Shown here: one piece after another, positions 6,797 through 62,481 of the stretch
Numbering within the stretch: position 1 is the first letter of the stretch
Layout: each line of letters begins with the position of its first letter
From: an uncultured Candidatus Saccharibacteria bacterium
GTDB lineage: Bacteria; Patescibacteriota; Andersenbacteria; UBA10190
Direction: 5' to 3'
DNA length: 64,000 bases
NCBI GenBank assembly: GCA_964610055.1
Contig: CAZSUC010000002.1
Span: forward strand, 82,283-146,282
Translations under genes and position numbers: made by a program
Notes under the pieces: generated by a model
Database searches by the model: none
The model's input: only the letters and a program-made list of their open reading frames with translations
What the model was told of the DNA's origin: nothing

Positions 6797-6858
6797 TGGT
6801 TTTACTATATCTTTGAAAGGGGATAGTTTGCCAGAGGGTGTGATATAATAAAGTTCGT

Positions 6859-8586
6859 ATGGCTAACAATGAGGTAGTCCAGGTCGTAAAAGTACTGCTT
6901 GAAGCAGGCAGATTAAATGAAGAGCAAGCCAAAACGGCTGAGGCGGCAATTGGTGGTGGTCGAGGTGGGTATGACGTATTAGTCGGAGGGCAGTTGGTTG
7001 ATGAGGAGGCATACACTCAGGCTGTGGCACAAGTATTACAGGTACCATATATTTCGTTAAAAGGAGTTGCGATTTCTCGAGATGTGTTAAACGTGATTCC
7101 AGAATCAACTGCACGGGAACATTCAATTGTTGCTTATGAACAAGATGAAAGCAGCTTAAAAGTAGCAATGTTGGATCCGAGTGATCGTCAGATTGTGGAA
7201 TTTATACATAAAAAAGTAGATCAGCCAGTAACAGTAGCACTGGCAAGTGCTACGAGTATTAAGTGGGCGTTAGCTCAATATCGTGAAAGCTTAGAAGCGG
7301 AACTACAAAAGATACTGCAACAGTCTTCAGCTGGAATGGACGTAACGGATGATTTGAATAAAATTGCGGAAGATTTGCCGGTGGTGCGAACAGTTGACTT
7401 GATGTTGAGACACGCGATTTTACAGGGAGCGTCGGATATTCATATTGAGCCGTTAGAAGATAAGGTAGTAATTCGGTTTCGGGTGGATGGTTTGTTAAGG
7501 GATGTTCTATCGTTACCGAAAACATTTTTGGCGGGGTTGGTCGCTCGAATTAAAGTGTTAGCACATTTGAAGATTGACGAGCATCGTTTGCCTCAGGACG
7601 GCAGATTTAAAATCCAGTCTGATGATTATAAAGTGGCGTTTCGTGTGTCAGTGTTGCCAGTATACGACGGCGAAAAGTTAGTCATGCGTTTGTTGGATGA
7701 GTCGGGTAAAGGATTGGTGTTGGATTTATTAGGAATGAGACCAGATGTATTAGACGTATTTCGTCGTAATGTCCAAAAGCCTCACGGTATGATCTTAGTA
7801 ACAGGGCCAACTGGGTCTGGTAAAACTACGACTTTGTACGCCGCAATGAAGGAATTGAATGTGCCAGAGGTCAATATTAGTACGATTGAAGATCCAATTG
7901 AATATCGCATGCCAAGAGTTAACCAAACGCAGGTGAATCCTCAAATTGGATTAACTTTTGCATCGGGGTTACGAGCTTTAGTGCGTCAGGATCCGGACAT
8001 TATTATGGTTGGTGAAATTCGAGATGAAGAAACAGCCTCGTTAGCAATTAATGCTGCTTTAACAGGTCATTTGGTGCTATCTACTTTACACACTAATAGT
8101 GCATCTGGTGCATTACCGCGGTTGTTGGATATGGGGGTAGAAGCGTTCTTGGTGGCGTCGACGGCTAATTTATTGTTGGCCCAACGATTGGTGCGGCAAT
8201 TATGCAAGGATTGTCGGCAAGCAGCTAAAATTGATGAAAAAGTTTTGGCGGATGTTTTGAAGTTAGTCAGTGAAGAAAGATTAACAAGTGTTTTGCATCA
8301 GGAAGGCGTGTTAAAGGAAGGACAGAACTTGAAAGATATAGAAGTCTATCAGCCGGTGGGATGCAGTGTGTGTGGCGACGGGTATAAGGGGCGAGTTGGG
8401 ATATATGAAGTAATTGAAATGACAGATGAATTACGGGAGATGGTTTCAGAGAAAACAACTTCTCAGGATCTAGAAAACCTGGCCAAGACTCAACAGAAAA
8501 TGACCACGATGTTTGAAGATGGGTTTATAAAAGTGATGGCAGGTGAAACTTCGATTGCGGAAATCTTACGCGTAGCTAAGGAATAG
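6859..8586 (+). CDS. pilB: type IV pilus assembly ATPase (GspE/PilB family)
   Basis: N-terminal GSPII_E_N domain, Walker A GPTGSGKTTT, and a tetracysteine motif CKDC...CSVCGDG. Confidence 0.9.
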   Translation: MANNEVVQVVKVLLEAGRLNEEQAKTAEAAIGGGRGGYDVLVGGQLVDEEAYTQAVAQVLQVPYISLKGVAISRDVLNVIPESTAREHSIVAYEQDESSLKVAMLDPSDRQIVEFIHKKVDQPVTVALASATSIKWALAQYRESLEAELQKILQQSSAGMDVTDDLNKIAEDLPVVRTVDLMLRHAILQGASDIHIEPLEDKVVIRFRVDGLLRDVLSLPKTFLAGLVARIKVLAHLKIDEHRLPQDGRFKIQSDDYKVAFRVSVLPVYDGEKLVMRLLDESGKGLVLDLLGMRPDVLDVFRRNVQKPHGMILVTGPTGSGKTTTLYAAMKELNVPEVNISTIEDPIEYRMPRVNQTQVNPQIGLTFASGLRALVRQDPDIIMVGEIRDEETASLAINAALTGHLVLSTLHTNSASGALPRLLDMGVEAFLVASTANLLLAQRLVRQLCKDCRQAAKIDEKVLADVLKLVSEERLTSVLHQEGVLKEGQNLKDIEVYQPVGCSVCGDGYKGRVGIYEVIEMTDELREMVSEKTTSQDLENLAKTQQKMTTMFEDGFIKVMAGETSIAEILRVAKE

Positions 8587-8587
8587 T

Positions 8588-9805
8588 ATGTCCATTTTTG
8601 CATATCAGGGCAGAGATGAAAAAACAGGCGAGGTCGTATCGGGAATGCGAGAGGCGCCTAATCATGCGCAGCTAGGTCAAGATCTATTACAAGATGGGAT
8701 TTTATTAACTCGATATTCATTACAGAAAAAGCAGAGGCGCGGTGCGACTTTATGGGAATCGGTTTTTGAAAGAGTGCCATTGTTGGAGAAGATATTGTTT
8801 ACGCGATATTTTGCTTTGATGTTACGCGCCGGATTAGATGTTAAGCAGTCCTTACAAGCTTTGAGCGAGCAGACTAGGAATAAGTTTTTGAAAAAAGCAA
8901 TTGAGGGAATTATGCAGGCAGTTGATCGCGGGGTGGGGCTGTCAGATGCAATGAGAAATTATCCTATGTCGTTTTCTGATTTATTTATTAGTTTTGTGCG
9001 GGTAGGTGAGAGCACTGGTCGTTTGCAAGAGTCATTGTCAGTGTTATCGATTCAGATGCAGAAGGAGTATAACTTAAGGCGAGCGGTACGTGGTGGTTTG
9101 ATGTATCCCCTGGTAATTGTTGTTGTTTTAGTGGTGGTGGCGTTTGCGATGCTTGTATTTGTAGTACCGAAGTTGGCAGAAGTGTTTGAAGGGTTTGATG
9201 TAGAATTGCCATTAACAACAAGAATTTTAATAGCAGTTGGTGCTTTTTTTGAAGTGTATTGGTGGCTAGTGATTATTGGGGCAGTTATTTTAGGATCAAT
9301 TATCTGGATGTTAATGCTGGTGGATAAGGTTAAAGGCGGAGTGATGCATGCATTATTATTTATGCCAATTGTCGGTCCAATCATGAAACAAGTAAATTTA
9401 GCGCGATTCTCGCGTAATTTAAGCTCATTGCTACAGAGCGGAGTAAACTTTGTGGATGCTTTAGGAATTATGGGTGAGAATACGGCTCACCATAGTTATG
9501 CGCGAGTGTTATTAGGGGCGAGGGAGCATGTTCGGAAAGGTAAATCGTTGAGTGAATATCTGGCGGGACATGAGCGACTTTTTCCCCCGTTAGTTGTAAA
9601 TGTAGTTAAAGTTGGTGAGGAGACAGGGGCGTTAGATGAAGTGTTACGTGAGATTGCTTTGTTTTATGAAGAAGAAGTGGATCAGGTGATGAAGAATCTG
9701 ACGTCGGTAATGGAGCCAGTTTTGATGGTTGTGATTGGAATTGCAGTGGGGGCACTGGCGATTGCGGTTATCTCGCCGATTTATGGGTTGGTCAATGTTA
9801 TTTAA
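8588..9805 (+). CDS. pilC: type IV pilus platform protein (GspF/PilC family)
   Basis: Two T2SF domains and three TM segments. Its stop overlaps the start of the next gene (ATGTTATTTAA). Confidence 0.9.
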   Translation: MSIFAYQGRDEKTGEVVSGMREAPNHAQLGQDLLQDGILLTRYSLQKKQRRGATLWESVFERVPLLEKILFTRYFALMLRAGLDVKQSLQALSEQTRNKFLKKAIEGIMQAVDRGVGLSDAMRNYPMSFSDLFISFVRVGESTGRLQESLSVLSIQMQKEYNLRRAVRGGLMYPLVIVVVLVVVAFAMLVFVVPKLAEVFEGFDVELPLTTRILIAVGAFFEVYWWLVIIGAVILGSIIWMLMLVDKVKGGVMHALLFMPIVGPIMKQVNLARFSRNLSSLLQSGVNFVDALGIMGENTAHHSYARVLLGAREHVRKGKSLSEYLAGHERLFPPLVVNVVKVGEETGALDEVLREIALFYEEEVDQVMKNLTSVMEPVLMVVIGIAVGALAIAVISPIYGLVNVI

Positions 9806-11294
9806 TGAAAGTCGGACTAATGGGTTAACGCTGATCGAGGTTCTGTTAGCCACGGTTATTATTGGGATTATTGCGGTAGGAGCGTCAAATTTATTTTTGC
9901 TATCTATGCGGAGTTCACAGGAGGCGGAACGAAGAGTGGTGGCGATTGCGTTAGCAAATGAACGAATGGAAATGATTAGAAATTTGCCGTATGAGAACGT
10001 CGGTACGATAGGTGGGATACCGTCAGGCGCAATTGCGCAGGCAGAGACTATCACAAGAAACTCAATCAATTATGAAGTCAAAACAGAGGTGCGATATGTA
10101 GATGACGTATATGATGGTTCGGCGAGTGGGTCAACGGAAGAGGAGGATTTTATTATAATTTGTCATATTCCACCTGGACATCCGGAAAATCAGACGACAA
10201 TTAGAGTCGCAGCTTCAGCGTTGGATGCTCATTTAGCGCATGGTGATTACACGGGAGCCTGTGGCTCTGGCGGCGGTGATGGTACTGATGAAGGAGATGA
10301 TTATAACGGAGATTATAAATTGGCGCGGGTTGAGGTTGATTGGGCGAGCCAGTATGAGACTCAACCCGTACTTTTAATGACTTATATTGCACCAAAAGGA
10401 ATTGAGGGAGGTAGTCTAAGCGGAACATTAGACTTACAGATTGCATCAGCCGAAGGAGTGGGGATTGCGGAAGCAGATGTAGAGATTATTAGCGATCAAA
10501 CTGATCCGACAATTGATATTACAACCGAAACAAATGCGGAGGGGCGAGTAGTTATGCCTGGTTTTCCGGAAATGGCAGAAGCGTACCAAGTAATAGTGCA
10601 CAAGGACGGATATACGAGCGAACAAACTTATGCTGCAACTGATGATTTTTTACCTGATGCCGAACATACAAATTTGACGATGTTGGTGCAGCAAGTGACT
10701 TCTAAGTTGCTATTTATTGATTTGGTGGCACAAGTTGAATTAAAAACAGTTGACGCTGAGGGAGTAGTGATTGGAAATGTGCCGTATCATTGGCAAGGCG
10801 AGAAAACAATTGGACAAAATATTGATGAAGAGGGAAATACGACCGATGTGTATAAATTTGATCAAGATGGAACCACGGATCAGGCTGGCATAGCTTCTTT
10901 AGAAGACTTGGAGTGGGATACATATTCTATGTCCATTCCAGCCGAGAGTGGTTATATCGTAAAAGAATATTGGCCAGTGCATCCGTTTCAGATTGATCCG
11001 GGAACAGATACCGATGTAGAAGTAGTGTTAGTGCCGTATACGGATTATTCAGTGCAAGTAACAGTATTAGATTTGACGGGGGTGCCAGTGGATAATGCAA
11101 CGGTTCGTTTGGAAAAGGATGGCTTTAGCGAAGAGAATGGGACGGGTGTACGAGGTCAAGTTATATTTACTGATTTGCCTGAATTAGGAAACTATGACTT
11201 GTTTGTCGATGTGGGCAACTATGAGACTTATTCGCAAACAGTTCAAGTGTCAGGCAATGAAACGGTACAGGTATCATTAACTCCAGTAGTCTAA
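9795..11294 (+). CDS. large pilin-like protein with a class III (prepilin) signal peptide and CarboxypepD_reg/Ig-like beta domains
   Basis: Start chosen at the internal ATG (MLFNESRTNG|LTLIEVLLATVIIGI). Prepilin signature G/LTLIE with Glu+5. C-terminal repeats such as ATVRLEKDGF...GQVIFTDLPELGNYDL resemble carboxypeptidase-regulatory-like folds. Confidence 0.7.
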   Translation: MLFNESRTNGLTLIEVLLATVIIGIIAVGASNLFLLSMRSSQEAERRVVAIALANERMEMIRNLPYENVGTIGGIPSGAIAQAETITRNSINYEVKTEVRYVDDVYDGSASGSTEEEDFIIICHIPPGHPENQTTIRVAASALDAHLAHGDYTGACGSGGGDGTDEGDDYNGDYKLARVEVDWASQYETQPVLLMTYIAPKGIEGGSLSGTLDLQIASAEGVGIAEADVEIISDQTDPTIDITTETNAEGRVVMPGFPEMAEAYQVIVHKDGYTSEQTYAATDDFLPDAEHTNLTMLVQQVTSKLLFIDLVAQVELKTVDAEGVVIGNVPYHWQGEKTIGQNIDEEGNTTDVYKFDQDGTTDQAGIASLEDLEWDTYSMSIPAESGYIVKEYWPVHPFQIDPGTDTDVEVVLVPYTDYSVQVTVLDLTGVPVDNATVRLEKDGFSEENGTGVRGQVIFTDLPELGNYDLFVDVGNYETYSQTVQVSGNETVQVSLTPVV

Positions 11295-11297
11295 GGT

Positions 11298-11906
11298 ATG
11301 GAAAAAGGCTTTACAGTTATTGAAGTGGTGGTTGTTTTAGGTATTACTTCGGTTTTGATTACGGCCTTGTTGCGATTTGTAGCAGCTGGGTATCCTTTAT
11401 CGCGAGTGACATATTTGCAGCAGCGCTCAACTGAAACAGCGAGATTGCAATTAAAGCGGATCGCAAAAGCAATTAGAGAAGCGCGTCCATCGGATGCGGG
11501 TGCTTATCCGCTAGTAGAAATGGAGGATCAGAAATTAGTTTTTTATGCTGATGTTGATGACGACGGGGCGACAGAAATGGTGCGATATGAATTAGACGGG
11601 ACAGATTTAATTTATGGGATTATTGAGCCGTCCGGAGATCCGATTGAATATGACCCTGGGAGTGAAATTACGAGAATTGTGACTCATGATGTACGGAATG
11701 GATTTGATCCTATTTTTGTATATTACTCAGGTGATTATCCAGACGATCAAACTCCTCTAACTCCGGTTGATGTAACTGAGGTGAAATATATTCAGTTTGC
11801 ACTGGTAATTGATGTAAATCCGGATGTGGATCCGCAGCCGATTCAGGTTATTTCACAGGTTCAAATTCGAAACTTAAAAGATAATTTAGGCGACACAGTA
11901 GAATAG
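11298..11906 (+). CDS. pilin/pseudopilin with a prepilin-type N-terminal cleavage/methylation domain
   Basis: MEKG|FTVIEVVVVLGITSVL is a canonical class III signal with Glu+5. It is 202 aa long and has no Cys. Confidence 0.75.
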   Translation: MEKGFTVIEVVVVLGITSVLITALLRFVAAGYPLSRVTYLQQRSTETARLQLKRIAKAIREARPSDAGAYPLVEMEDQKLVFYADVDDDGATEMVRYELDGTDLIYGIIEPSGDPIEYDPGSEITRIVTHDVRNGFDPIFVYYSGDYPDDQTPLTPVDVTEVKYIQFALVIDVNPDVDPQPIQVISQVQIRNLKDNLGDTVE

Positions 11907-11952
11907 GTGAGCTCTTGTCAGGTGAGTTAAATGGCTTTTAAGATAGAGGGAT

Positions 11953-13320
11953 ATGAAAAAGCCTGATCAAATAATAATTGTGTTTCTGCTAGCGGTGGGG
12001 ATCTTGGTGCATTTTATTGGTTTGAAGTATCCGGACCAGGTTGTCTTTGATGAAGTCCATTTTGGTAAATTTGTCACTGCTTATTGTTGTACGCATCAAA
12101 ATTTTTTTGATATTCATCCACCGCATGCCAAGTTGCTAATTGCAGGGGCGGCTTGGTTGGGTGGCTATCGGGGTGGTTTTTCGTTTGATCATATTGGTCA
12201 GGAATATGCGGAAGTGCCAATTGAAGCGTTAAGATTTATCCCAGCTTTGGCGGGGTCGATTTTAGCAGCAATTATATATGGTTTGTTACGGAAATTAGGA
12301 GTAAGTCGACAATTAGCAGTAATTAGTGGGTTGGCGGTGGTATTAGAGAATGCCACGATAGTGCAGACAAGGATGATTTCGTTGGACGGAGTGTTGTTAG
12401 TCGCTATTTTTGGAAGTCTGAGCTGCTATTTGTCAGCTGAGAAAAATAGTGGTCGGAAGAAATATTACTGGCTAGTAGGGGCGGGCGCTTTAGCCGGCTT
12501 AGCAGTCGGGACTAAATTTACAGGGCTAACAATTGTGGGGTTATTAGGAGTAATGCTTGCGGTTGAGTGGATAAAGCGGATTTATCGAAGAGAAAATTGG
12601 CGCGAAACAATACGCTCAGGGGGAGTGATAGCGATAGCAGCGATCTTAGTTTATTTAACTGGCTGGGTAATTCATTTTAGTTTGTTAGATTTACCGGGTA
12701 GCGGTGACGCGTTTCATAAAACTGATTTTTCTGAGAATGTTGTGATTGATTTTTTCCGCGAAACATACGAATTACATAAGGTTATGCTGTCAGCTAATTA
12801 TGGCTTAAAAGCAACACATGATTATGCGAGTCAGTGGTGGCAGTGGCCAATTATGCAGAGATCGGTGTTTTATTGGCAGAGCGAGGGGCGAATGATTTAT
12901 TTCTTAGGTAACCCAGCTGTTTGGCTAGGCAGCGGTTTATTGTTAGCGGTGGCCATGATTAGTGCGTTGATTTTGTTTGGGCAGAAAATACAGTCTCGCT
13001 GGGTGCAGCAAGCAAAATCGGTCCGAATTTGGATTCCAGTGATTGGTTATTTGATTGGTTATATACCATTGATGCGAGTGCCTAGGTCTTTGTTTTTGTA
13101 TCATTATTTAACTCCCTTATTGTTTGGCATCTTAACAGGAACTATATGGTTAGAGATCGTGACTAAGGACAGTCGGGATAAAAGTTGGTATCAGATTGGA
13201 ACAGGAGTGATTTTTGGCCTAATAGTTTTAGGATTCGTATGGTGGTCACCGTTAACATATGGTTGGCTAGCGCCGGATAATTGGATGAGTAATTTATTTT
13301 GGGTGCCAAGTTGGCGATAA
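11953..13320 (+). CDS. PMT/GT39-family (dolichyl-phosphate-mannose-protein mannosyltransferase-like) polyprenyl-phosphate-sugar-dependent glycosyltransferase
   Basis: VVFDEVHFGKF...FDIHPPHAKLL matches the PMT loop-1 DE motif and HPPL(A)K(L/M)L. It is a polytopic membrane protein of 455 aa. Confidence 0.65.
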   Translation: MKKPDQIIIVFLLAVGILVHFIGLKYPDQVVFDEVHFGKFVTAYCCTHQNFFDIHPPHAKLLIAGAAWLGGYRGGFSFDHIGQEYAEVPIEALRFIPALAGSILAAIIYGLLRKLGVSRQLAVISGLAVVLENATIVQTRMISLDGVLLVAIFGSLSCYLSAEKNSGRKKYYWLVGAGALAGLAVGTKFTGLTIVGLLGVMLAVEWIKRIYRRENWRETIRSGGVIAIAAILVYLTGWVIHFSLLDLPGSGDAFHKTDFSENVVIDFFRETYELHKVMLSANYGLKATHDYASQWWQWPIMQRSVFYWQSEGRMIYFLGNPAVWLGSGLLLAVAMISALILFGQKIQSRWVQQAKSVRIWIPVIGYLIGYIPLMRVPRSLFLYHYLTPLLFGILTGTIWLEIVTKDSRDKSWYQIGTGVIFGLIVLGFVWWSPLTYGWLAPDNWMSNLFWVPSWR

Positions 13321-13343
13321 TTCGGTTGTGATACAATTTAAAT

Positions 13344-14735
13344 ATGGAGGATGTGAGTTGGCGGCTTAATTGGAAGCGACGCGGCAGTTTGTTAGTCATG
13401 ACACTGGTGTTTGTGTCGATGTTTGTTGTGGTCTTTATGGCGTTGGCAGGTATGGTAAATCGAACATATCATGAGAGTGTTTTACAGGCTCAAGATGAAA
13501 CGGCTTTCCAGGTGGCGGAGGCAGGGTTGAATTATGCTCGGTGGCGTTTGGCTCATGATCCTTCAAATTTTGAGGTTGAAACTAAAGAAGTCTCTGATCC
13601 ACAAGCAGGGGTGTTAGGAGAATATCATGTTGAATTTGCAGAACCGCAAGAGGGCAGCACGATCGTGATTATTACATCGGAAGGCACGACTTCAGCGCAG
13701 CCGTCTAGAACCGTAACGTTGCAGGTACGGTATGGAAAAGCATCATTAGCTCAATATGCTTCTATTACAAATGAAGATGTGTGGTATGGCAGTGAGATAA
13801 AAGGGGCAGTTCATTCGAATGGAGGTATTCGGATGGATGGTTATTCGGATGGATTAATGACTAGTGCGAAAGAGACTTATGCATGTCAAACCTATCACGG
13901 ATGTTCTTCTCCTTATGAGACTAAACCGGGTATTTGGGGAGAAGGCGAGCGGTCGGAATTGTGGGAGTTTCCAGTTGTAGCGGTGGATTATAACTCATTA
14001 ACAATGGATTTGCTGGCAATGAAGGAAGCGGCGGTAGAAGCGGATACTTATTATGGATCATCGTCTAAATATGGGTATCAAGTAGTTTTTAATAGTAATA
14101 ATACGATGACGATTAGCAAGGTGACGCGAAAAGGGCAGAATGTGTGGTCGAAAGCACCGGGGGAAAATTATGAATATAGTTCATATGATGTTGGGCAAAC
14201 TCAAGTAATCGAAACAAAAGAAGTAGAAAGTGGGAGTATTTATTTTTTTGAAGATGATGTGTGGGTGTATGGTGAGATTCGAAGTCGGGTGACTATAGCA
14301 GCGGGAGTGTTTCCAGATCGATCTAGTACGAATGCTAGTATTATCTTGAATGGAAATATTACATATGGCGATGTGCATGATGGGTCGCGTGTATTCGCGG
14401 CAGTGGCTCAAAAAGATATATTGATTCCTTGGTCAGGTGCTCCAGATGATATGGTGTTAGAAGGCGCATTCGTGGCGCAGAATGGAGCATTTTATCGGAG
14501 ATATTATTGCCCTGGGTCATGTGGAGCAGATGCACATCGAATTAAAAATAGTTTAACGCGTTATGGCATGATCGCGAGTAATGGCGTTCCGGCAACGGCT
14601 TGGGTGAGCGGAGAGACTTTGTTAAGTGGTTTTCGAGAAGGTTCGGCTGAATATGATCCTAATTTATTGTATGCTCCACCTCCTTATTTTCCGACGAGTG
14701 GAGAATACGAGTTTATTTCTTGGGAAGAAATGTAA
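13344..14735 (+). CDS. hypothetical secreted/anchored protein in the pilus locus, with a PilX-like N-terminal hydrophobic segment and a beta-rich C-terminal domain
   Basis: N-terminus RRGSLLVMTLVFVSMFVVVFMALAGMV resembles a PilX_N minor-pilin anchor. The rest is G/S/Y-rich. Confidence 0.4.
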   Translation: MEDVSWRLNWKRRGSLLVMTLVFVSMFVVVFMALAGMVNRTYHESVLQAQDETAFQVAEAGLNYARWRLAHDPSNFEVETKEVSDPQAGVLGEYHVEFAEPQEGSTIVIITSEGTTSAQPSRTVTLQVRYGKASLAQYASITNEDVWYGSEIKGAVHSNGGIRMDGYSDGLMTSAKETYACQTYHGCSSPYETKPGIWGEGERSELWEFPVVAVDYNSLTMDLLAMKEAAVEADTYYGSSSKYGYQVVFNSNNTMTISKVTRKGQNVWSKAPGENYEYSSYDVGQTQVIETKEVESGSIYFFEDDVWVYGEIRSRVTIAAGVFPDRSSTNASIILNGNITYGDVHDGSRVFAAVAQKDILIPWSGAPDDMVLEGAFVAQNGAFYRRYYCPGSCGADAHRIKNSLTRYGMIASNGVPATAWVSGETLLSGFREGSAEYDPNLLYAPPPYFPTSGEYEFISWEEM

Positions 14736-14766
14736 AAAGAGCGGAAATACAGTATGCTAAAGAAGT

Positions 14767-15792
14767 ATGTTGGGCGTAGACATATCTGAGCGTTCGATTA
14801 AAGTTGTACGTTTGAGTAACAGCAAACGACACAAGCTGTTGGCACGAGCGTGGTGTGAAATACCGGCGGAAGCAATTCAGCATGGAGTGATAACCGAGCC
14901 AGATGTAGTGGGTAAGGCTCTGCGTCAAACAATAGAAAAGTGTGGAGTGAGATCAACGCATCAAGATGTAGTGGTGGCGTCTATACCAGAATCAGAATCT
15001 TTTTTAAGTGTAGTAGAAATTCCAGCGATGGATGAACAGGAAGTGTCGGAGGCGGTGCAATGGGAAGTAGCCCAGCATATGCCGTTTGGATTAGAGAATG
15101 TGTATTTAGATTGGCAATGGGTCAGTCCAAAAGGATCCGTAAAAAAGGATCGTCAAGAAGTGCTGGTGGGAGCAGCTGAGAAAAAAGTAGTCGATCCTTT
15201 GGTGGGGTTGTTGAATCGGTTAGGGTATGACGTGGCGGCTTTGGAGTTGGAAAGTCAAGCGATTGTGCGAGCATTGATATCAGAGGATTTATTGGATAAA
15301 CAAGGGCTATTGATGGTTGATTTAGGCGCAACTGTTACTAATGTCGTGGTGCATGACAGAGGAGCGATTCGATTTTCAGCGACGTTGAAGCGGGGAGTGC
15401 AAGCAGCGATGGCAAATTTAAATCCAGAAGAAGAGGGTTTGGTTAAAGATCCATCAGCGAAAACAAGTGAGCAAATTAGTGCTCAGTTAGAAGAGAAATT
15501 ACGTTTTCCGTTAGAGGAAATAGTGGCTGAGGTGCATGGTATTTTGGAATATTACACTGGGTTATCGACCGAGCATCGAGTGAATGAAATCTTGTTGACT
15601 GGTGGTGGAGCAAATTTACCGGGCTTGGATCGGATTTTTCAAAGATTTTTTTCTGATGTTCATTTGAGTCGTGCAAATCCATGGATCAATATTCGTTCTG
15701 CTCAGCAAAATGCAGCTCCGCTGATGAGTTTGTCAGAGTCAGTACATTATTCCACAGCGTTGGGATTGGCGCTGCGGGACGTTGTTTTTTAA
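14767..15792 (+). CDS. pilM: type IV pilus assembly protein PilM (actin-like ATPase fold), copy 1
   Basis: MLGVDISERSIKVV start typical of PilM. It is followed by NLLP-motif and PilO-like genes. Confidence 0.8.
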   Translation: MLGVDISERSIKVVRLSNSKRHKLLARAWCEIPAEAIQHGVITEPDVVGKALRQTIEKCGVRSTHQDVVVASIPESESFLSVVEIPAMDEQEVSEAVQWEVAQHMPFGLENVYLDWQWVSPKGSVKKDRQEVLVGAAEKKVVDPLVGLLNRLGYDVAALELESQAIVRALISEDLLDKQGLLMVDLGATVTNVVVHDRGAIRFSATLKRGVQAAMANLNPEEEGLVKDPSAKTSEQISAQLEEKLRFPLEEIVAEVHGILEYYTGLSTEHRVNEILLTGGGANLPGLDRIFQRFFSDVHLSRANPWINIRSAQQNAAPLMSLSESVHYSTALGLALRDVVF

Positions 15793-15805
15793 AGCCGCAG
15801 GTGCT

Positions 15806-16342
15806 ATGAAAGACGAGATTAATTTATTACCGCCACGAGCAGTTGTTACTCGTCGAAAATTAGTAGTTACGAGAAGATTGGCAAAATTAATGCGACGAGT
15901 GTTGATGGGAGAAGCTGTTTTGGCAGTCATGATTATTATTGGCTTAAATGCAAATCAGACTTTAGGAAAGATTGTAGCGCAGCAGTTTTCTGAAAGCAGT
16001 TCGAAACAATCAGAGTTGCAAACTGAGGTGAAACAATTTAATGCGTTGATACGAGATGTAAATAAGTGGCGCTCAAAGTACTCCGCATGGTCGCCGATGA
16101 TCAAAGAAATTCTGAATGCATTGCCGGAAGGAGTGCAAATTAATAGTTTAGCAGCGGGAGAAACGGGACAAATTACGGTTCAAGGCGAGTTTGAAAACGC
16201 AGAACAAATTGTGAGCTATCAGCGTAAACTAGAGCAGATATCAGGGGTGGCAAGAGTAGAAGCGCCACTAAGTAATTACTCAACAGGCAGCAATCAGCAG
16301 TTTAAGTTAATTGTGGTGTCGCAATATGAAAACGAAAAATAA
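15806..16342 (+). CDS. pilN: PilN-like inner-membrane pilus alignment protein, copy 1
   Basis: INLLPPRAVVTRRK (NLLP motif) followed by a single TM helix. Start placed at the internal ATG, because the track's start codon is TTG. Confidence 0.7.
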   Translation: MKDEINLLPPRAVVTRRKLVVTRRLAKLMRRVLMGEAVLAVMIIIGLNANQTLGKIVAQQFSESSSKQSELQTEVKQFNALIRDVNKWRSKYSAWSPMIKEILNALPEGVQINSLAAGETGQITVQGEFENAEQIVSYQRKLEQISGVARVEAPLSNYSTGSNQQFKLIVVSQYENEK

Positions 16343-16961
16343 GCAGCAATTAAATAGTTGGGCCGGGATAACACTGGGATTAGAAGTGCTGTTGATACTG
16401 GTGCTGGGAGGAGGAATTTGGTGGGGGTATAGCCAGGTGCAAACGAATCGACAAGCATACGCCCTAGGGCGGTATAAGTTGGAGAATTTGCCCAATGATT
16501 TACAAGCATGGTCGAAAGCAAATGCTGAGTTGCATCAGTACGATAGTGATTGGGAGAAGTTGGAGGCTATGCTGATTCCGATTGATAAAGCGGGGGAAAT
16601 TGTGAAGGACTTACAGAATTTAGGAGCAAAACAGCAAATTCAAGTTCAAGTTCCTGAAATCCAAGAATATATTGAGACTGATGAGAATAAACATCAGCTT
16701 AATCAATATACTGGTATGCAGGAAGTGGAGATTTCGTTTAGCGCAGTGGGCAATCCAGATGATTTAATGTTGTATTTACATGATTTAGAAGCTTTGCCGT
16801 ATGCTTTGGCGGTTCGAGAATGGCAGTTGCAAACAGGAACTAATGCAGCACGTGGCACGGTACGCGCGGCACCGGAAGCGTTAGATGGGGATGATAAAGA
16901 GACGGTCCAGCAAACCAGTGTCTTGTCTGGGAAAATTATGGTGTTGTTTGAAGAGGAATAA
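16326..16961 (+). CDS. pilO: PilO-like protein, copy 1
   Basis: Single N-terminal TM helix plus a coiled-coil/periplasmic domain, positioned after pilN. Start placed at the internal ATG, because the track's start codon is TTG. Confidence 0.55.
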   Translation: MKTKNKQQLNSWAGITLGLEVLLILVLGGGIWWGYSQVQTNRQAYALGRYKLENLPNDLQAWSKANAELHQYDSDWEKLEAMLIPIDKAGEIVKDLQNLGAKQQIQVQVPEIQEYIETDENKHQLNQYTGMQEVEISFSAVGNPDDLMLYLHDLEALPYALAVREWQLQTGTNAARGTVRAAPEALDGDDKETVQQTSVLSGKIMVLFEEE

Positions 16962-16965
16962 ATAT

Positions 16966-17283
16966 ATGTCCAAGTCCAAAAAACTAAAATGGAATAAAAA
17001 GAAGATTATGAGCCTAACATCGTATCAAGGTTGGGCTTGGCTCTTAACCAAACAAATGACATGGTTTGAGATAGTGGTTTTAATAATCTTTTTGATGTTA
17101 GGTGGTTGGTTGTATATCAAGATGTTTGTGCTATTACCGCAAGTTAACACGGAAACTTCGCAATCTGTTACGAATGTTGATCAAGATGACTTAAAAGCTG
17201 TACAGGATTGGAGCGAGGTAAAAGCTGAACAAAGAGAAGCAGGGGCGGGATTGGTGCGGGGGAAATATTTTATTGGATCATGA
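16966..17283 (+). CDS. small single-TM protein (PilP-like position), copy 1
   Basis: ATG lies 5 nt after the pilO stop. One TM helix. Shares an EQREA motif with the ORF at 19485. Confidence 0.4.
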   Translation: MSKSKKLKWNKKKIMSLTSYQGWAWLLTKQMTWFEIVVLIIFLMLGGWLYIKMFVLLPQVNTETSQSVTNVDQDDLKAVQDWSEVKAEQREAGAGLVRGKYFIGS

Positions 17284-17297
17284 TGTAAGATGACATT

Positions 17298-18344
17298 ATG
17301 GTAGGGATTGATGTATCGGAAAAATCAATAAAAGTAGTTGAGGTTTCGGATGGCCAAAACCCATCTTTACATACCGTATGTTGGTCGGCCATTAGTAATG
17401 ACATGATCAAAAATGGAGTAGTGCAAGATAAAGAAGAAATGGCACAGGCTTTGTCTTTGGCATTAGGCAAGTGCACGCCTGTACCGGTGACAGGGAAAAG
17501 GGTTGTAGTTTCGATTCCGGAATCACAGTCGTTTGTGCGAGTTCTTGATTTACCACAGATGTCAGATGAAGAAACTGACGAAGCGGTACAGTGGGCTGTG
17601 CGACATCATATTCCGTTTGATTTAGAAAGAGTGTATATAGATTGGCAGCCAGTTGGCATAGGTGGTGCGGATAATAATCGACGACAGATTTTAGTGGGGG
17701 CAGCACAAAGAATCGTTGTGGATCCGTTGTTAGAGGTGCTGGATAGTTTAAAGTTGCAAGTTGAAGCCTTGGAGTTAGAGGCGCAAGCGATTGTGCGGAG
17801 TCTATTGCCTTTTCAGGCTCAGGATGTGCAAGGAGTTTTAATTGTAGATTTAGGAGCGGAAGCGACTAACGTAATTTATTTTGATCAGGGCGCAATGCGT
17901 TTTACTACTAGTATCCGCAAAGGCGGAGAATATCTAACAGAACAGTTGGCTCAAAACTTGCGTATTCAACCCGGTTCGGCGGCTGAGAAAAAAGCATTAG
18001 TAGGAATTACTAGCGCGAGTGCGGATGATGCACAGGTGGCGGCAGTATTGCGAGGAGCGTCATTGGAAATTGTGCAACAAATTGAGCAGGTTGTACGAGA
18101 AGTGGCAGTGCCGGGAGCAAGCGACAGTGGAGTGAGGGCGATAATTTTATCTGGAGGGTCAGCTAATATGCCGGGATTAGTATCGGTTTTTAATGAAGTG
18201 TTTGTGGGGGTACCAACGCAATTAAGTAATCCTCTGATTAATTTAACAAGCGAACGAGGAGCGGTTTTGTCGGGTAATGATGCTGTGCATTTTGCAACGG
18301 CAATTGGGTTGGCTTTGCGCGAAGCATGCGAGGAGGGAAGTTGA
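17298..18344 (+). CDS. pilM: PilM, copy 2 (paralog of 14767..15792)
   Basis: MVGIDVSEKSIKVV start. Clear paralogy runs across the whole length (SIPES(Q/E)SF, DEAVQW, VDLGA). Confidence 0.8.
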   Translation: MVGIDVSEKSIKVVEVSDGQNPSLHTVCWSAISNDMIKNGVVQDKEEMAQALSLALGKCTPVPVTGKRVVVSIPESQSFVRVLDLPQMSDEETDEAVQWAVRHHIPFDLERVYIDWQPVGIGGADNNRRQILVGAAQRIVVDPLLEVLDSLKLQVEALELEAQAIVRSLLPFQAQDVQGVLIVDLGAEATNVIYFDQGAMRFTTSIRKGGEYLTEQLAQNLRIQPGSAAEKKALVGITSASADDAQVAAVLRGASLEIVQQIEQVVREVAVPGASDSGVRAIILSGGSANMPGLVSVFNEVFVGVPTQLSNPLINLTSERGAVLSGNDAVHFATAIGLALREACEEGS

Positions 18345-18350
18345 TGTTAT

Positions 18351-18929
18351 ATGCGCCAGGTTAATTTATTACCACCAGATAGAAGAACGAGATTAAAGAG
18401 ATTGGAGCTTTGGAAACAGTTGGCTCAGTCGTTGAATAAAACGGGATTAGCACTGTGGTTTATGATGTTTGTAGGCATTATTTTATTGGTATCGTTATGG
18501 ATATTATCAGTGGCAGCGGAAAGCACGACGACAATTGAATTGCAGGCTGAGGTGGCAAATTATAAAAGCATTAGGAAGGAAGTGGCGCAGCAGCGAGCGT
18601 TGCTAGAACAAGTATATGGAGTAGCAGAAAACCGGGTGGTGTGGGCGGATGTTTTTGAGCAGTTATTAAAAACAGTGCCGAGCGGAGTGCAAATGACGGC
18701 ATTCACTGGTCAGTCAGAAATTAGTGATGATGAAACTATGGCGAGCTTAGTGATACGGGGTCAAGCAGTAACACGTAATGTGCTGAAGGCATTTGAAAGT
18801 CGTTTACAAAATATTGTTCTAGTGACAGGCATTGAATCTCCGACCAGTAATTTACTTGATCGGGAGAATCCGACTTTTGAATTAAAACTACTGATCCAAC
18901 CAGCAACAACGGAGGATAATGAAGTATGA
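18351..18929 (+). CDS. pilN: PilN-like, copy 2
   Basis: VNLLPPDRR motif plus a TM helix. Confidence 0.7.
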   Translation: MRQVNLLPPDRRTRLKRLELWKQLAQSLNKTGLALWFMMFVGIILLVSLWILSVAAESTTTIELQAEVANYKSIRKEVAQQRALLEQVYGVAENRVVWADVFEQLLKTVPSGVQMTAFTGQSEISDDETMASLVIRGQAVTRNVLKAFESRLQNIVLVTGIESPTSNLLDRENPTFELKLLIQPATTEDNEV

Positions 18930-19495
18930 AAAAAGTAACGTCAGAAAAACAGGTTTTTTGGTTAGCGCTAGCGGTAATGTTTGGTTTAGTAGTGGTGCAG
19001 GTGCCAATTTGGTATGGGGTCGGTGTATTTGCTCAAAAATTATTTGACAATCGAATGATAGAACAGCAGCTATGGGTAGTCAGGCAAAGAAATGAGAGTG
19101 CATGGGAGCAGTTAACAGCACAGACGAATTATTTATCTCAATTAGATATGGTGGTGCCGAATATTAGTACGTTGGCACAAGAGATTGAGCGCATGGAACG
19201 TTTAGCGGATGAGGCTGGGATTGTGCTAAATACTAATGAAATTAAGGAAGAGGATTTGGTGGGATCGCAAGCGGGGAGTTTGTTAAAAGTGGCGAATGTG
19301 ACATTGGACTTGGTGGGTGATCCAGAGCAGCTGTTGGTTTTTCTCGGCCAATTAGAGCATTTACAAGAGTTAACTGAAGTAACAGAAATTTCATTGCGAC
19401 AATGGACGAGCGAAGCGCAAGTGACTGAAGATGGACGACAGGCTTATATTTTATCAGTACGAGTTAAGTTTTATATGCAAAATAATGGCGAATAA
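18926..19495 (+). CDS. pilO: PilO-like, copy 2
   Basis: N-terminal TM helix and coiled coil. Its start overlaps the pilN2 stop. Confidence 0.55.
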   Translation: MKKVTSEKQVFWLALAVMFGLVVVQVPIWYGVGVFAQKLFDNRMIEQQLWVVRQRNESAWEQLTAQTNYLSQLDMVVPNISTLAQEIERMERLADEAGIVLNTNEIKEEDLVGSQAGSLLKVANVTLDLVGDPEQLLVFLGQLEHLQELTEVTEISLRQWTSEAQVTEDGRQAYILSVRVKFYMQNNGE

Positions 19496-19802
19496 AGCAA
19501 AAATTAGCTGGAAGGGTTTATCCTGGCAAATGGTTGCGGATCAGGCGCAGGCCTGGGTGACGATAGTGGTGACTGCGCGCGTAACGACTATATTAGTATG
19601 GGGAATAGTTGTGATGGTAGTGATATATTTAGCGTATATGCAGGTGTGGCGTATATTAACTGGAGATTTAACATTGCCAGCAGGCGTGGTTCCGACTCAG
19701 TTAAGTGTGGATGCAGACATTTTGCAACAGATTCATGAGCAACGTGAGGCGAGAGAAGACTACATTGTGCCGGCTTTTAGAGTAGAAAATATATTACCGT
19801 AA
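19485..19802 (+). CDS. small single-TM protein (PilP-like position), copy 2
   Basis: MANKAKISW start, one TM helix, and EQREA motif. Paralog of the ORF at 16966. Confidence 0.4.
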   Translation: MANKAKISWKGLSWQMVADQAQAWVTIVVTARVTTILVWGIVVMVVIYLAYMQVWRILTGDLTLPAGVVPTQLSVDADILQQIHEQREAREDYIVPAFRVENILP

Positions 19803-20227
19803 TGAACACACAAGGGGGAAAACGAGTGTTGTTGTTTGGGACATTTGATCCAATACACGAAGGACATAGGCAGATGTTGCAAGAGGCGCGTAAATACGGT
19901 GACTGGATAATAGTGGTGGTAACGGCGGATGAAGTAGTGAAGCGACAAAAGAAACACGAACCATATCAACCAGAAGCAGAACGATGTGCGGTCGTGCGAG
20001 AAAATGGAGCAGATGAGGTGGTAGTCGGAGATCAACAGCCAGAAAAGTACCAACTTTTGCGTGAATTGGAGTATGATGTTTTGGCGTTAGGTTATGATCA
20101 GCCAGTGTCTCTAAAAGAAGCAAAATCTTTGTTAATGGAATGTGATCATTCAATGGTACAGGTAGTGCGGTTAACTGCTTTTGAACCAGAAAAATATAAA
20201 TCAAGTTTAATACGAGGGTTGAGTTAA
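19802..20227 (+). CDS. cytidylyltransferase-like nucleotidyltransferase (RibL/TagD/PPAT-like)
   Basis: LFGTFDPIHEGH (HxGH nucleotidyltransferase motif), 141 aa. Confidence 0.65.
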   Translation: MNTQGGKRVLLFGTFDPIHEGHRQMLQEARKYGDWIIVVVTADEVVKRQKKHEPYQPEAERCAVVRENGADEVVVGDQQPEKYQLLRELEYDVLALGYDQPVSLKEAKSLLMECDHSMVQVVRLTAFEPEKYKSSLIRGLS

Positions 20228-20263
20228 TTGCATAAGCAGCCGAACAAGCGATAGGATGAAAGA

Positions 20264-20941
20264 GTGAGTAAATATCCTTCGCAAAACGGATGGGGGTTAG
20301 CGGTAGCGATTTTGATGATCGGAAGCGTAGTGGCGGGTGGGTTATATATTTTAAAGGCACCGCGCGCGGAAGTGCAGAATAGTGTCGGGGAGCAAGGGCA
20401 GGTGGCGGGTGAAGTATTCTCAAATGAAGATCAGACTGAACCGCAAGAAGGTTCAGTGACGGCGCCGGTAAAAATAGTGCTGTATACCGATTTGGATTGT
20501 GATTTTTGTCGTCATTTTTATCAATCGGTGTGGCAGCCGGCTCGGGATCAGTATTTTGAAACCGGAAAAGTGCAAGCTGTTGTGCGAGTTTTTCCGTTGG
20601 GAAAACTGTATAATCAGGAGAATGATGTGGCGGAATTAGCGTATTGTGCCTATCAACAGGGTGAATTTTTTGAAATTATGAACGCGGTTTTTGAAGGGGA
20701 GAAATATATGCCGACCGAGCAAATTAAAGAAATAATTAATACTTATGTTGATAAAGTGGCGTTAGATAATTGTCAGCAGTCAGGTATAGGAAGAATGATG
20801 TTGGGGCAAGCATCGCAGCAGGCTTTAGAAGTGGGGGTGACGTCGGTGCCGGCTATAGAAATCAATGGACAGGTTTATGAAAATGTAACGACCTTCGCGC
20901 AGCTACAAGAAATTTTAGCGCAGGTTTTAGAAGAAGTATGA
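20264..20941 (+). CDS. DsbA-like thioredoxin-fold thiol:disulfide oxidoreductase
   Basis: N-terminal TM/signal segment, CDFC (CxxC) motif, and a DSBA-like domain. GTG start. Confidence 0.65.
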   Translation: MSKYPSQNGWGLAVAILMIGSVVAGGLYILKAPRAEVQNSVGEQGQVAGEVFSNEDQTEPQEGSVTAPVKIVLYTDLDCDFCRHFYQSVWQPARDQYFETGKVQAVVRVFPLGKLYNQENDVAELAYCAYQQGEFFEIMNAVFEGEKYMPTEQIKEIINTYVDKVALDNCQQSGIGRMMLGQASQQALEVGVTSVPAIEINGQVYENVTTFAQLQEILAQVLEEV

Positions 20942-21867
20942 ATGAAGTAGTTACATTGCCACCCGGAGTGTCGATTGGAATTTTAGCGTTTTTGCTGAGC
21001 TTGTTACCGGCGGGTTTATTTTTGTGGGTGTGGTATTTGCGACGTCATGATCGACCAGTCCCGGTATCAGTAGTAGTACGAGGCATGATAATTGGGATGT
21101 TGTTAGTTGGGCCAGCGTTTGTGCTGGAATCATGGGCGCCAAAACTCTGGACGGCTTTATCGCCGGGCACAGTTCATTATTTTGACAGTGCCGTGTTACC
21201 GTTAGAAACTTTTGGCGATATATTTTGGCCAGCAGTCGGTACTTTTGGAATAGTGGCTTTAATTGAAGAAGGATTGCGATTTTTAAGTTTGAGTTGGTGG
21301 TTTCGTAAAAGTCCCGTGATTGATCAAGTGTTTGACGGATTAGTTGTGGGGTTAGCAGTTGGTTTAGGATTTGCCACGTTAGAAAATACGTTATATTTTT
21401 TCCAACTGTTTTGGCAGGGTAATTTTGATACTTTAGTATTTGTGTTTTTCTTGCGCTTTATAGTGTCGACGATGGCGCATGTAAGTTTTGGCGGTATCAT
21501 GGGCGTGTTATTAGTGCGAGGATATTTTACCTGGTATCGACGTCGGTATTATTTAGCGCAAGCGTTTATAGTGCCGTGGTTAATGCATGGGGCATACGAT
21601 TGGATGTTGGGTGTTAATCAAACAGCATATGCAATCGTAATGTTGTCAGTGCCCCTAGTTTTGTTGGTGACTTGGAGTAATAGAAGAGAATTTTTTGCAG
21701 TTAATCGGGAAGGGGCGCAAAACTTGATTACACCAAAACCACCGCATGGATATGAAGACTTGCAGCTCAAGACAACAAAATGGCAGCCAACTGGTACGTG
21801 GAATAAAGAAGCGCAATGGTTACGTTATCGGCGCTTAACAAAAAGACCTAATTCGTTAGATAATTAA
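20938..21867 (+). CDS. PrsW-family intramembrane metalloprotease
   Basis: EEGLRF, FATLEN and HVSFGGIMG motifs (EExxK/R, FxxxE, HxxxxG), in a polytopic protein. Confidence 0.6.
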   Translation: MNEVVTLPPGVSIGILAFLLSLLPAGLFLWVWYLRRHDRPVPVSVVVRGMIIGMLLVGPAFVLESWAPKLWTALSPGTVHYFDSAVLPLETFGDIFWPAVGTFGIVALIEEGLRFLSLSWWFRKSPVIDQVFDGLVVGLAVGLGFATLENTLYFFQLFWQGNFDTLVFVFFLRFIVSTMAHVSFGGIMGVLLVRGYFTWYRRRYYLAQAFIVPWLMHGAYDWMLGVNQTAYAIVMLSVPLVLLVTWSNRREFFAVNREGAQNLITPKPPHGYEDLQLKTTKWQPTGTWNKEAQWLRYRRLTKRPNSLDN

Positions 21868-24816: not shown

Positions 24817-25284
24817 TTGAGCAATACTCAAGGTATGAAAGATTTGGCGTACAATAAGCGGGCAGTGTTTGATTATGACTTGCTGGAAAAGTTTGAAGGC
24901 GGGTTAAAATTGATGGGAACAGAGGTAAAATCGGTGCGAGCAGGGAATGTGAGCCTTAAAGGCGCGTTTGTGACATTGAAAGACGGAGAAGTGTGGCTGA
25001 CAAATGCGACGATTTCGCCTTGGCAGCCAGCCAATGCACCGACTGATTATGACCCAACTCAGCCCCGGAAGGTGCTTTTGAGCCGAGCCGAGATTAAGAA
25101 ATTGATTGGAGCCAAGGAAGCAAAGGGATTGACAATAGTGCCTATTAAGATGTATAATAAACGTTCACGGATTAAGTTAGAATTGGCTTTGGCACGGGGA
25201 AAGCGGCAATACGAGAAGAAAGAACAAAAGAAAGAGCATGATATTAAGCGGGATATTGACCGAATGTTAAGAGGAAAGGAATAG
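24817..25284 (+). CDS. smpB: SsrA-binding protein SmpB
   Basis: NKRAVFDYDLLEKFEGGLKLMGTEVKSVR. The track's start is TTG; the true start may be the ATG at 24835. Confidence 0.95.
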   Translation: MSNTQGMKDLAYNKRAVFDYDLLEKFEGGLKLMGTEVKSVRAGNVSLKGAFVTLKDGEVWLTNATISPWQPANAPTDYDPTQPRKVLLSRAEIKKLIGAKEAKGLTIVPIKMYNKRSRIKLELALARGKRQYEKKEQKKEHDIKRDIDRMLRGKE

Positions 25285-25731: not shown

Positions 25732-25894
25732 CTGTTGTAAACAAAGCAAAAATATACCAAAACAAGGTGAGACATTTGGAATACCTTGGCATTATTACTA
25801 TCATGTTCTACTATCGTTTGTTGAGATTGTAGCATGAGTGTCCTTTTAACCTGGCTGTATTAAGCAGCCAAAACCTCTCAGCGGAGAAAGTGAA

Positions 25895-60228: not shown

Positions 60229-60236
60229 GTTTTGTG

Positions 60237-62447: not shown

Positions 62448-62481
62448 ATGTTTTGGAGTAAAACGTTATTTAAAGATTGAG

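Follow-up and report, generated by a model that had tools for sequence, protein, structure and literature searches.

The stretch of 64,000 nucleotides from contig CAZSUC010000002.1 analysed here (the window, positions 1-64000) comes from the Candidatus Andersenbacteria lineage of the Candidate Phyla Radiation (CPR). It carries a type IV pilus operon without a secretin at 6859-19802 on the + strand. The alignment module of this operon consists of pilM, pilN, pilO and a gene for a small bitopic protein of ~105 amino acids (aa), referred to here as S, which follows each pilO. This module is present twice in tandem, as M1-N1-O1-S1 (module 1) and M2-N2-O2-S2 (module 2), in a single operon with one pilB and one pilC. 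The 14 genes run uninterrupted, with intergenic gaps of -17 to +46 nucleotides (nt), in the order pilB, pilC, a 503-aa modular pilin, a 202-aa pilin, a PMT glycosyltransferase, a 463-aa protein and then the two modules. The features of the operon and of the genes directly after it are as follows (TM, transmembrane helix; AF2, AlphaFold2).

6859..8586, + strand: pilB, assembly ATPase, 575 aa (PF00437, 1.5e-132, 442 bits; N-terminal MshEN, PF05157, 9.5e-15)
8588..9805, + strand: pilC, platform protein, 405 aa (PF00482, 4.1e-58, 195 bits, two repeats)
9783..11294, + strand: modular pilin, 503 aa (class III signal TNG/LTLIEV; N_methyl; C-terminal CarboxypepD_reg/PEGA)
11298..11906, + strand: pilin-like protein, 202 aa (class III signal MEKG/FTVIEV; N_methyl; TIGR02532)
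11953..13320, + strand: PMT-family (GT39-like, GT-C) membrane glycosyltransferase, 455 aa (PF02366, 7e-45; PF16192, PMT_4TMC, 3e-39)
13344..14735, + strand: putative ComZ/GspK-like tip pilin, 463 aa (predicted fold; position just upstream of pilM)
14767..15792, + strand: pilM1, 341 aa (PF11104, 136 bits; TIGR01175, 167 bits)
15806..16342, + strand: pilN1, 178 aa (N-terminal MKDEINLLPP, one TM; PF05137, 21.8 bits; profile match to N2)
16326..16961, + strand: pilO1, 211 aa (PF04350 matches of orthologues; hhalign to the O2 family)
16966..17283, + strand: S1, small bitopic protein, 105 aa (conserved fourth module gene; profile match to S2)
17298..18344, + strand: pilM2, 348 aa (PF11104, 128 bits; TIGR01175, 141 bits; 40% identity to M1)
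18351..18929, + strand: pilN2, 192 aa (N-terminal MRQVNLLPPDRR motif, one TM; PF05137, 19.5 bits)
18926..19495, + strand: pilO2, 189 aa (AF2 model with Foldseek matches to PilO)
19485..19802, + strand: S2, small bitopic protein, 105 aa, paralogue of S1 (BLAST and profile match to S1)
19802..21867, + strand: conserved downstream genes for a cytidylyltransferase/FAD-synthetase-like protein, a Thioredoxin_4/DsbA-like protein and a PrsW protease (Pfam)

An earlier reading made from the letters and open reading frames (ORFs) alone, here called the sequence-only reading, had described a pilus locus without a secretin with this inventory at these coordinates, and all 14 genes are confirmed on the + strand. 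The probable starts are 15806 for N1, 16326 for O1, 16966 for S1 and 19485 for S2. The genes of the operon are translationally coupled, or nearly so. A perfect extended -10 promoter-like element (TGATATAAT) lies at 6841..6849 (+) and ends 9 nt before the pilB ATG, in a divergent intergenic region of 62 nt where direct reading finds no obvious -35. This suggests TGATATAAT as a candidate promoter of the operon, which would give pilB a leaderless or nearly leaderless transcript. Across the operon, including the junction between the modules, a consensus scan found promoter- or terminator-like sites to be no commoner than in shuffled sequences, a result that does not count against an internal promoter or terminator. 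The downstream genes at 19802..21867 are probably co-transcribed with the pilus operon.

Protein comparisons pair each gene of module 1 with the gene at the same position in module 2. M1 and M2 are 40% identical (BLAST E 6e-80), N1 and N2 21% identical (E 3e-10 with BLAST and 1.6e-26 in the profile-profile comparison). O1 and O2 give no BLAST match and are aligned by hhalign, profile against profile, with an E-value of 7.5e-20 over 179 columns. For S1 and S2 the E-value is 0.008 with BLAST and 2.4e-5 between profiles, which bears out the proposal in the sequence-only reading that the ~105-aa single-TM protein is part of the duplicated unit. None of the profile comparisons across positions (N-O, N-S, O-S) is significant. 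Each gene thus matches only its positional counterpart, and therefore the entire four-gene unit was duplicated. At the DNA level, the modules have just two remnants of 20-22 nt in common, 2542-2554 nt apart, one of which encodes INLLPP. The identical arrangement is found in two independent Logan assemblies and in one NCBI contig.

To place these genes, a collection with one genome per GTDB species was scanned, which gave 25 Andersenbacteria-type loci and 9 loci from other Patescibacteria (L numbers below refer to these loci). The four PilM scores listed above all exceed the model cut-offs (27 bits for PF11104, 133 bits for TIGR01175). D5, D185-G187 with T191, and G279-G280 are invariant in the M1 orthologues and in M2, and 56 invariant positions are common to M1 and M2, including the DxS, VDLGA and GG(G/S)AN nucleotide-binding motifs. 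Thus, both PilM copies retain the actin-like nucleotide-binding motifs. Only 5 positions are fixed differently between M1 and M2, while 9 are conserved in M1 alone and 8 in M2 alone. The sequence-only reading had called the two copies paralogous from shared blocks; the paralogy stands, although M1 reads SEAVQW and not DEAVQW, and M2 reads IVDLGA and not the quoted (L/M)VDLGA.

Both PilN copies score just under the PF05137 cut-off of 22.8 bits. They have the PilN architecture of a short cytoplasmic N-terminus with an INLLP-type motif followed by one TM, where N1 starts with MKDEINLLPP and N2 with MRQVNLLPP. The exact pattern [ILVM]N[LIF][LI]P occurs in 14 of the 20 N1 sequences, the rest being near-matches such as INLMP and INVLS, and in all N2 sequences (19/19). 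The flanks are family-specific: N1 is acidic before INLLP, and N2 has RR two residues after it. At the level of sequence, these distinct flanks are compatible with recognition by a cognate PilM.

The O1 and O2 proteins of the window do not match any Pfam family themselves. PF04350 is matched by 7 of 18 O1 orthologues (best 1.2e-7) and by 3 of 17 O2 orthologues (best 5.3e-6), and five O1 orthologues match T2SSM_b, the model of the type II secretion protein GspM. The O1 and O2 family profiles both reach Myxococcus PilO 3jc8 in the PDB, with E-values of 0.027 and 0.009, respectively. A word-indexed homologue search with PilO1 returned the query itself only. For O2, homologues were collected by exhaustive phmmer (101 cluster representatives), and the AF2 model was built from an alignment of 60 sequences. 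The model has a pLDDT (AlphaFold's per-residue confidence score) of 91.3 and consists of a TM/coiled-coil helix followed by two alpha-beta-beta units (H7-76, H80-96, E, E, H133-144, E, E; H, helix; E, strand). Its best Foldseek matches in the PDB are PilO structures: 3jc8_Oa (2e-6), 2rjz (1.5e-4) and 5uvr. The third genes of the modules are PilO, O2 by its model, orthologues and profiles and O1 through its orthologues and the hhalign match to O2.

The fourth protein, S, has a basic N-terminus, one TM and an external tail of ~50 residues with a conserved helix motif. Neither S1 nor S2 matches a Pfam or NCBIfam model. The S families (S1, S2, S of single-module loci and S of the outgroup) are interrelated, with profile E-values from 1e-5 to 3e-9, and S follows pilO as the fourth module gene in all Patescibacteria loci examined (including L028-L036). 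PilP and PilW are lipoprotein or bitopic proteins with a C-terminal secretin-binding beta/HR domain; S does not have this build and has only its operon position in common with them, and the locus offers no secretin that it could bind. It looks as if S is a fourth component of the CPR alignment module that has so far gone unannotated. We found no mention of it as a conserved fourth member in open-access CPR papers, which was a limited check.

When the 14 operon proteins were mapped onto the scanned loci, 24 of the Andersenbacteria-type loci were informative, and the contig of the remaining one was too short. Public metagenomes contain at least 378 PilM1 hits, and the PilM1 homologues that bear a taxon name are labelled Candidatus Andersenbacteria. 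Both modules are present in 19 of the 24 informative species-level relatives, in the order M1-N1-O1-S1-M2-N2-O2-S2, in one of them with N2 displaced. The other five have module 1 alone (M-N-O-S) in the same genomic context, with the cytidylyltransferase-like gene and PrsW downstream as in the window. The near-complete genome GCA_016197005.1 (1.04 Mb, 5 contigs) has the double module, and L019, L020 and L022 are among the single-module loci. In Moraniibacteria, Paceibacteria, Spechtbacterales and other Parcubacteria there is a single module, and the order in this outgroup is pilB-pilC-big pilin-pilin-463-aa homologue-pilM-pilN-pilO-S. S1 is also present in L018, L021, L023 and L027, where it is masked by over-long ORF calls for pilM2. 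In most relatives S1 and M2 are closely linked and either overlap or are up to ~140 nt apart. Module 1 is never missing, and among the informative relatives there is no partial module 2. The loss of module 2 as a whole, never as a partial set, suggests that its four proteins work together.

Two relatives have variants of module 2. In L023 (12331-13962), pilM2 and pilN2 form a single ORF of 543 aa, the result of a GspL-like fusion or else of a frameshift in the metagenome-assembled genome (MAG). In L024 (12460-15591), pilN2 has moved downstream of the cytidylyltransferase-like gene, which gives the order M2-O2-S2-x-N2.

The sequence-only reading had proposed a PilM phylogeny against CPR homologues, and this was run with other Patescibacteria as a distance-based neighbour-joining tree (340 columns, 100 bootstraps). 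In this tree the duplication falls at the root of the Andersenbacteria sampled. M1 and M2 of the Andersenbacteria form one clade (96%) with the other Patescibacteria outside it. Within this clade M1 (100%) and M2 (97%) are reciprocally monophyletic, with broadly congruent inner topologies. The five single-module genomes nest within the M1 clade, in a 96% subclade shared with three double-module genomes, and occupy two separate positions there. Similarly, the S profile of the single-module loci is closer to S1 (3e-9) than to S2 (3e-5). Most simply, the module was duplicated once, before the divergence of the sampled Andersenbacteria, and module 2 was later lost as a unit. Given the topology of the tree, this loss probably occurred twice. 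In the collection scan, whose pattern is fitted by the M2 motif VHFATAIGLA, each single-module genome has only one pilM locus. As far as the completeness of the MAGs allows, this favours loss over relocation.

Eleven MAGs labelled 'uncultured Candidatus Saccharibacteria bacterium' (L004, L007, L008, L014, L016-L018, L021, L025-L027) carry the Andersenbacteria-type double module and nest among named Andersenbacteria in the PilM tree. The Saccharibacteria organism labels of these MAGs are probably wrong.

The two modules look equally constrained. Mean pairwise identity among orthologues in modules 1 and 2 is 0.54 and 0.55 for M, 0.30 and 0.33 for N, and 0.24 and 0.27 for O. Both modules are intact, and both copies look functional. 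Rate correlations of the mirror-tree type, with the distances of the 463-aa protein regressed out, are ~0.63 within modules and ~0.53 between them, a difference too small to decide between separate and mixed complexes.

A tandem duplication of pilMNO behind a single pilB-pilC was not found described in the open-access literature, in a limited check. Apparently, this ancient and lineage-conserved tandem duplication of the alignment module has been undescribed so far.

The genes between pilC and module 1 code for two pilins, a glycosyltransferase and the 463-aa protein. The two class III-signal pilin-like proteins of the sequence-only reading are upheld by N_methyl matches in both the 503-aa and the 202-aa protein. 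Orthologues of the modular pilin have the same operon position across Patescibacteria, and the 202-aa protein is kept directly after the big pilin in all related loci. A PDB sequence search with the 202-aa protein gave nothing meaningful; it is a probable minor pilin. Both class III pilins (G/LTLIE and G/FTVIE) are unlike a typical small major pilin. The glycosyltransferase was also present as predicted and can be refined to a PMT (GT39-type) enzyme that passes both family models (PMT 153.9 bits, cut-off 22.7; PMT_4TMC 134.9 bits, cut-off 32.4). Its gene lies within the operon in all Andersenbacteria loci and in no outgroup locus. A role as pilin O-glycosyltransferase is plausible and makes the enzyme a candidate for this function.

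The 463-aa protein does not match any Pfam family, nor any PDB entry at the sequence level. Its N-terminus reads RRG/SLLVM, without Glu5. The AF2 model (pLDDT 90.7) consists of an N-terminal helix of 67 residues, a pilin-like sheet and a beta-solenoid. The only significant Foldseek matches in the PDB are three chains of Thermus thermophilus ComZ (6qvi), with E-values from 7e-11 to 2e-9 and probability 1.0. The TM-score to ComZ is just 0.28, a low value that is probably due to domain orientation, and a PDB search with the family profile, built from 33 orthologues, yields no ComZ chain at E <= 1. Because the match is at the fold level only, the protein is called ComZ-like and not ComZ. By its predicted fold it resembles a ComZ/GspK-type tip pilin. 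ComZ itself is a DNA-binding competence pilin located at the pilus tip, with a beta-solenoid within a pseudopilin fold, and it is missed as a prepilin by standard tools (PMC6561018). The protein is more conserved than PilM (52-67% identity over its best 120 hits) and is kept immediately upstream of pilM across Patescibacteria. The name 'PilX-like' given by the sequence-only reading was a fair approximation, as some orthologues are named PilX by JGI, and the predicted fold refines it to a ComZ/GspK-type tip pilin. In a limited check of open-access CPR papers, no prior mention of ComZ was found.

The 64-kb window and the 7 kb upstream of it hold no pilT, pilD or pilQ, no additional pilB or pilC and no class III pilin beyond the two described. 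No gene of the window has a secretin domain, and there is no typical major pilin in the window. As a rule, pilD and pilT are encoded apart from the CPR pilus locus. Thus, the lack of pilQ, prepilin peptidase (pilD) and pilT in the window, correctly noted in the sequence-only reading, is unremarkable for the CPR, from which PilQ is absent generally (PMC6744442). The same reading had pointed to dprA. The gene is indeed in the window, at 62482-63354 (-), but its link to the pilus is weak: it adjoins topA, 43 kb from the pilus operon, and its presence is explained by this pairing and not by a link to the operon. The region 57989-63354 contains parA-parB (+) followed by topA and dprA (-).

Directly after the operon, a nucleotidyltransferase of 141 aa is encoded at 19802-20227 (CTP_transf_like 2e-19, FAD_syn 8e-6), the start of which overlaps the S2 stop codon. 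All Andersenbacteria loci have this nucleotidyltransferase gene after the pilus operon. In myxobacteria, ribF (FAD synthetase) is likewise always linked to pilB (PMC6060248). The parallel may be due to chance or may reflect an association that recurs. Between the nucleotidyltransferase and PrsW, at 20264-20941, there is a Thioredoxin_4 (DsbA/MdbA-like) gene, which is absent from this place in the single-module relatives examined. It matches a CPR-enriched oxidoreductase family that Meheust et al. tied to pilin folding (PMC6744442).

Two large probable surface proteins are encoded further downstream, one of 668 aa at 38046-40052 (DUF11 and DUF7619) and one of 1130 aa at 50588-53980 (FG-GAP, PKD-like and CarboxypepD_reg). 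The CarboxypepD_reg domain of the latter is of the same type as the C-terminus of the modular pilin. The window also contains smpB at 24817-25284, followed by a tmRNA gene at 25327-25734 (RF00023, 114 bits) that is missed by ARAGORN.

The base composition of the window is strongly skewed, with a GC skew, (G-C)/(G+C), of 0.30 over 1-64000 (18251 G vs 9836 C) and a cumulative skew that never turns. At third codon positions the skew is +0.60 in + strand genes and -0.57, on the coding strand, in - strand genes. The opposite signs mean that the bias tracks the DNA strand and not the direction of transcription. Among related loci the skew is 0.22-0.35 in L003, L005, L007, L011 and L014-L016, and 0.01-0.13 in the others.

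How two diverged modules are used behind one motor can be explained in several ways. We tentatively suggest, in preference to a mixed ring, that module 2 provides an accessory scaffold for the PilB and PilC that both modules share, and that each module has its own partners. M1 would assemble with N1, O1 and S1, and M2 with N2, O2 and S2. Each PilM would clamp the INLLP peptide of its own PilN, and PilN and PilO would dimerise outside the membrane; such clamping of the PilN N-terminus by PilM and PilN-PilO dimerisation are attributed to McCallum 2016 and Sampaleanu 2009 in PMC10823254. Each module would then scaffold the same PilC platform and PilB motor, which would result in two variants of one machine. 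Module 1 would be the ancestral, self-sufficient scaffold, and module 2 would be specialised, for example for a different pilin set, or for retraction and DNA uptake through the ComZ-like tip. Two cognate sub-complexes are favoured because module 2 was lost whole, module 1 suffices alone in sister lineages, and N, O and S have diverged enough for their partner specificities to separate.

Several points weigh against such an accessory scaffold. There is no direct evidence of separate complexes for the two modules, and the rate correlations within modules are only slightly above those between modules. Tandem paralogues in one operon often hetero-oligomerise, PilN/PilO and TadB/TadC being examples. 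A single mixed complex is at least equally compatible with co-transcription at a fixed stoichiometry and with the locus having no second pilin set, pilB or pilC.

In such a mixed complex, M1 and M2 would sit in one cytoplasmic ring, and N1-O1 and N2-O2 pairs, or crossed pairs, would join S1 and S2 in one extracytoplasmic cage on a single PilC and PilB, so that both modules would be part of every machine. It is favoured by the readiness with which tandem paralogues form heteromers and by the organisation of the locus, in which the eight genes share one operon with minimal spacing, tight S1-M2 linkage and no sign of an internal promoter, together with one pilB, one pilC and one tip-pilin set. 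With only five fixed differences between M1 and M2 the interfaces could have remained compatible, and the rate correlations across modules nearly match those within them. However, the genomes without module 2 have lost all of it, probably in two events, and have in every case retained module 1, which is thus sufficient alone in them. No mixed or partial arrangement is seen, and at an identity of 21% or less the N, O and S proteins would be expected to have separate partner specificities. We therefore regard one hetero-oligomeric complex as somewhat unlikely, though it is the strongest alternative.

A little less likely, in our view, is a single basal body with broken symmetry, where M1 takes turns with M2 around the ring, as N1-O1-S1 does with N2-O2-S2 around the cage. 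The alternating halves would then address different partners in turn, for example PilB for extension versus PilT, or a DNA-uptake channel behind the ComZ-like tip, for retraction. If true, an obligate two-fold heterogeneity of the subunits would be a first among type IV pilus alignment complexes, and the system would provide a handle on ATPase selection by the ring.

Module 2 could also serve a motor or machine encoded elsewhere, such as an orphan pilB2/pilC2, a PilT complex, ComEC-linked uptake or a machine unrelated to pili. Further pilus genes must lie elsewhere, given that the window holds no pilT, pilD or major pilin. PilMNO homologues have been recruited by another machine in the flagellar motor of Helicobacter pylori (PMC10823254), the two pilus systems of Saccharibacteria each have a PilMNO set of their own (PMC12206443), and the Thermus counterpart of the ComZ-like protein in this locus is a DNA receptor (PMC6561018). 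However, in the 19 relatives module 2 is always within the pilB-pilC operon and never beside another ATPase, the collection scan gave no additional pilM locus in these genomes, and CPR bacteria are generally without flagella. This explanation is accordingly improbable.

The loss of module 2 in 5 of the 24 informative relatives, with the rest of the operon retained, might indicate that it is a redundant spare, retained accidentally or for the sake of dosage and in the course of being lost. Nevertheless, module 2 has stayed whole in lineages that have drifted apart to an orthologue identity of just 25-55%, it is under the same constraint as module 1, and M2 and N2 have family-specific conserved positions and motifs. 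A spare copy would not persist so long in reduced CPR genomes of ~1 Mb, and we consider it very unlikely. Finally, an artefact of assembly or binning, in the form of a repeat that is collapsed or chimeric, is next to impossible, as nothing was found in its favour, the copies have diverged to 40% protein identity or less without a long DNA repeat, and the arrangement recurs in independent assemblies and in 19 other species, so that the sequence-only reading was right to see an old duplication.

The sequence-only reading had further suggested two pilus types, which is weakened by the single pilB, pilC and tip-pilin set in the window. Thermus makes two pili from a single PilMNO set (PMC7203116, PMC13039148), and Saccharibacteria make two pili from two complete machineries at separate loci (PMC12206443); both cases weaken this suggestion further. 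Two pilus types are not required by the locus.

Type IV pili are the main candidates for host attachment, motility and DNA uptake in the ultrasmall CPR bacteria, and DNA uptake by CPR pili would accord with the ComZ-like fold encoded just upstream of pilM. The PilMNO ring is among the less understood parts of the machine, with respect to the choice between extension and retraction ATPases and to envelope sensing. Here, the whole ring module exists in two diverged copies behind one motor, and sister lineages have gone back to one. Andersenbacteria are thus a natural experiment on partner specificity in the alignment ring, which extends current models rather than overturning them.

Among known systems, the PilM/PilN/PilO cage of the H. 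pylori flagellum (PMC10823254) is similar in being an extra scaffold that is not strictly needed for filament assembly. In H. pylori, however, the genes lie outside a pilus operon and serve a flagellar motor, while CPR bacteria are not known to have flagella.

The pilMNOW/ComZ system of T. thermophilus likewise has a lineage-specific fourth gene after pilO, PilW there and S here. Its tip pilin, too, carries a beta-solenoid within the pilin fold and has no canonical prepilin signature (PMC6561018), and its pili are glycosylated, which is paralleled by the PMT gene in the operon described here. Thermus differs in being diderm with PilQ and one PilMNO set, and in its PilW, a protein of 292 aa with a GspC-like domain.

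The PilMNOP(Q) systems of Pseudomonas and Myxococcus share the actin-like PilM, the INLLP motif of PilN, the double alpha-beta-beta fold of PilO and the order M-N-O followed by a small fourth gene. In contrast to these, the Andersenbacteria locus has no PilP lipoprotein and no PilQ, S has no detectable similarity to PilP, and the set is duplicated.

Nanosynbacter lyticus TM7x (PMC12206443) is also a member of the CPR, with two pilM/pilN/pilO sets and a non-canonical pilin of PilX type, and it provides the experimental proof that CPR can make two distinct pili. Its sets occupy different loci and each has a pilB and a pilC to itself, while here they are adjacent behind a single pilB-pilC; a pilB and pilC for each PilMNO set is found neither in the window nor in any related locus. 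Furthermore, the Andersenbacteria duplication arose within its own lineage, as seen in a PilM tree without TM7x sequences.

The locus itself belongs to the known class of CPR pilus loci without a secretin described by Meheust et al. 2019 (PMC6744442). It shares with them the co-localised pilB, pilC, pilins and pilM/N/O, the lack of PilQ, the DsbA/MdbA-like thioredoxin nearby and the gene order of our outgroup loci. Those loci, however, have one alignment module where the Andersenbacteria operon has two, and a PMT gene within the operon is specific to Andersenbacteria.

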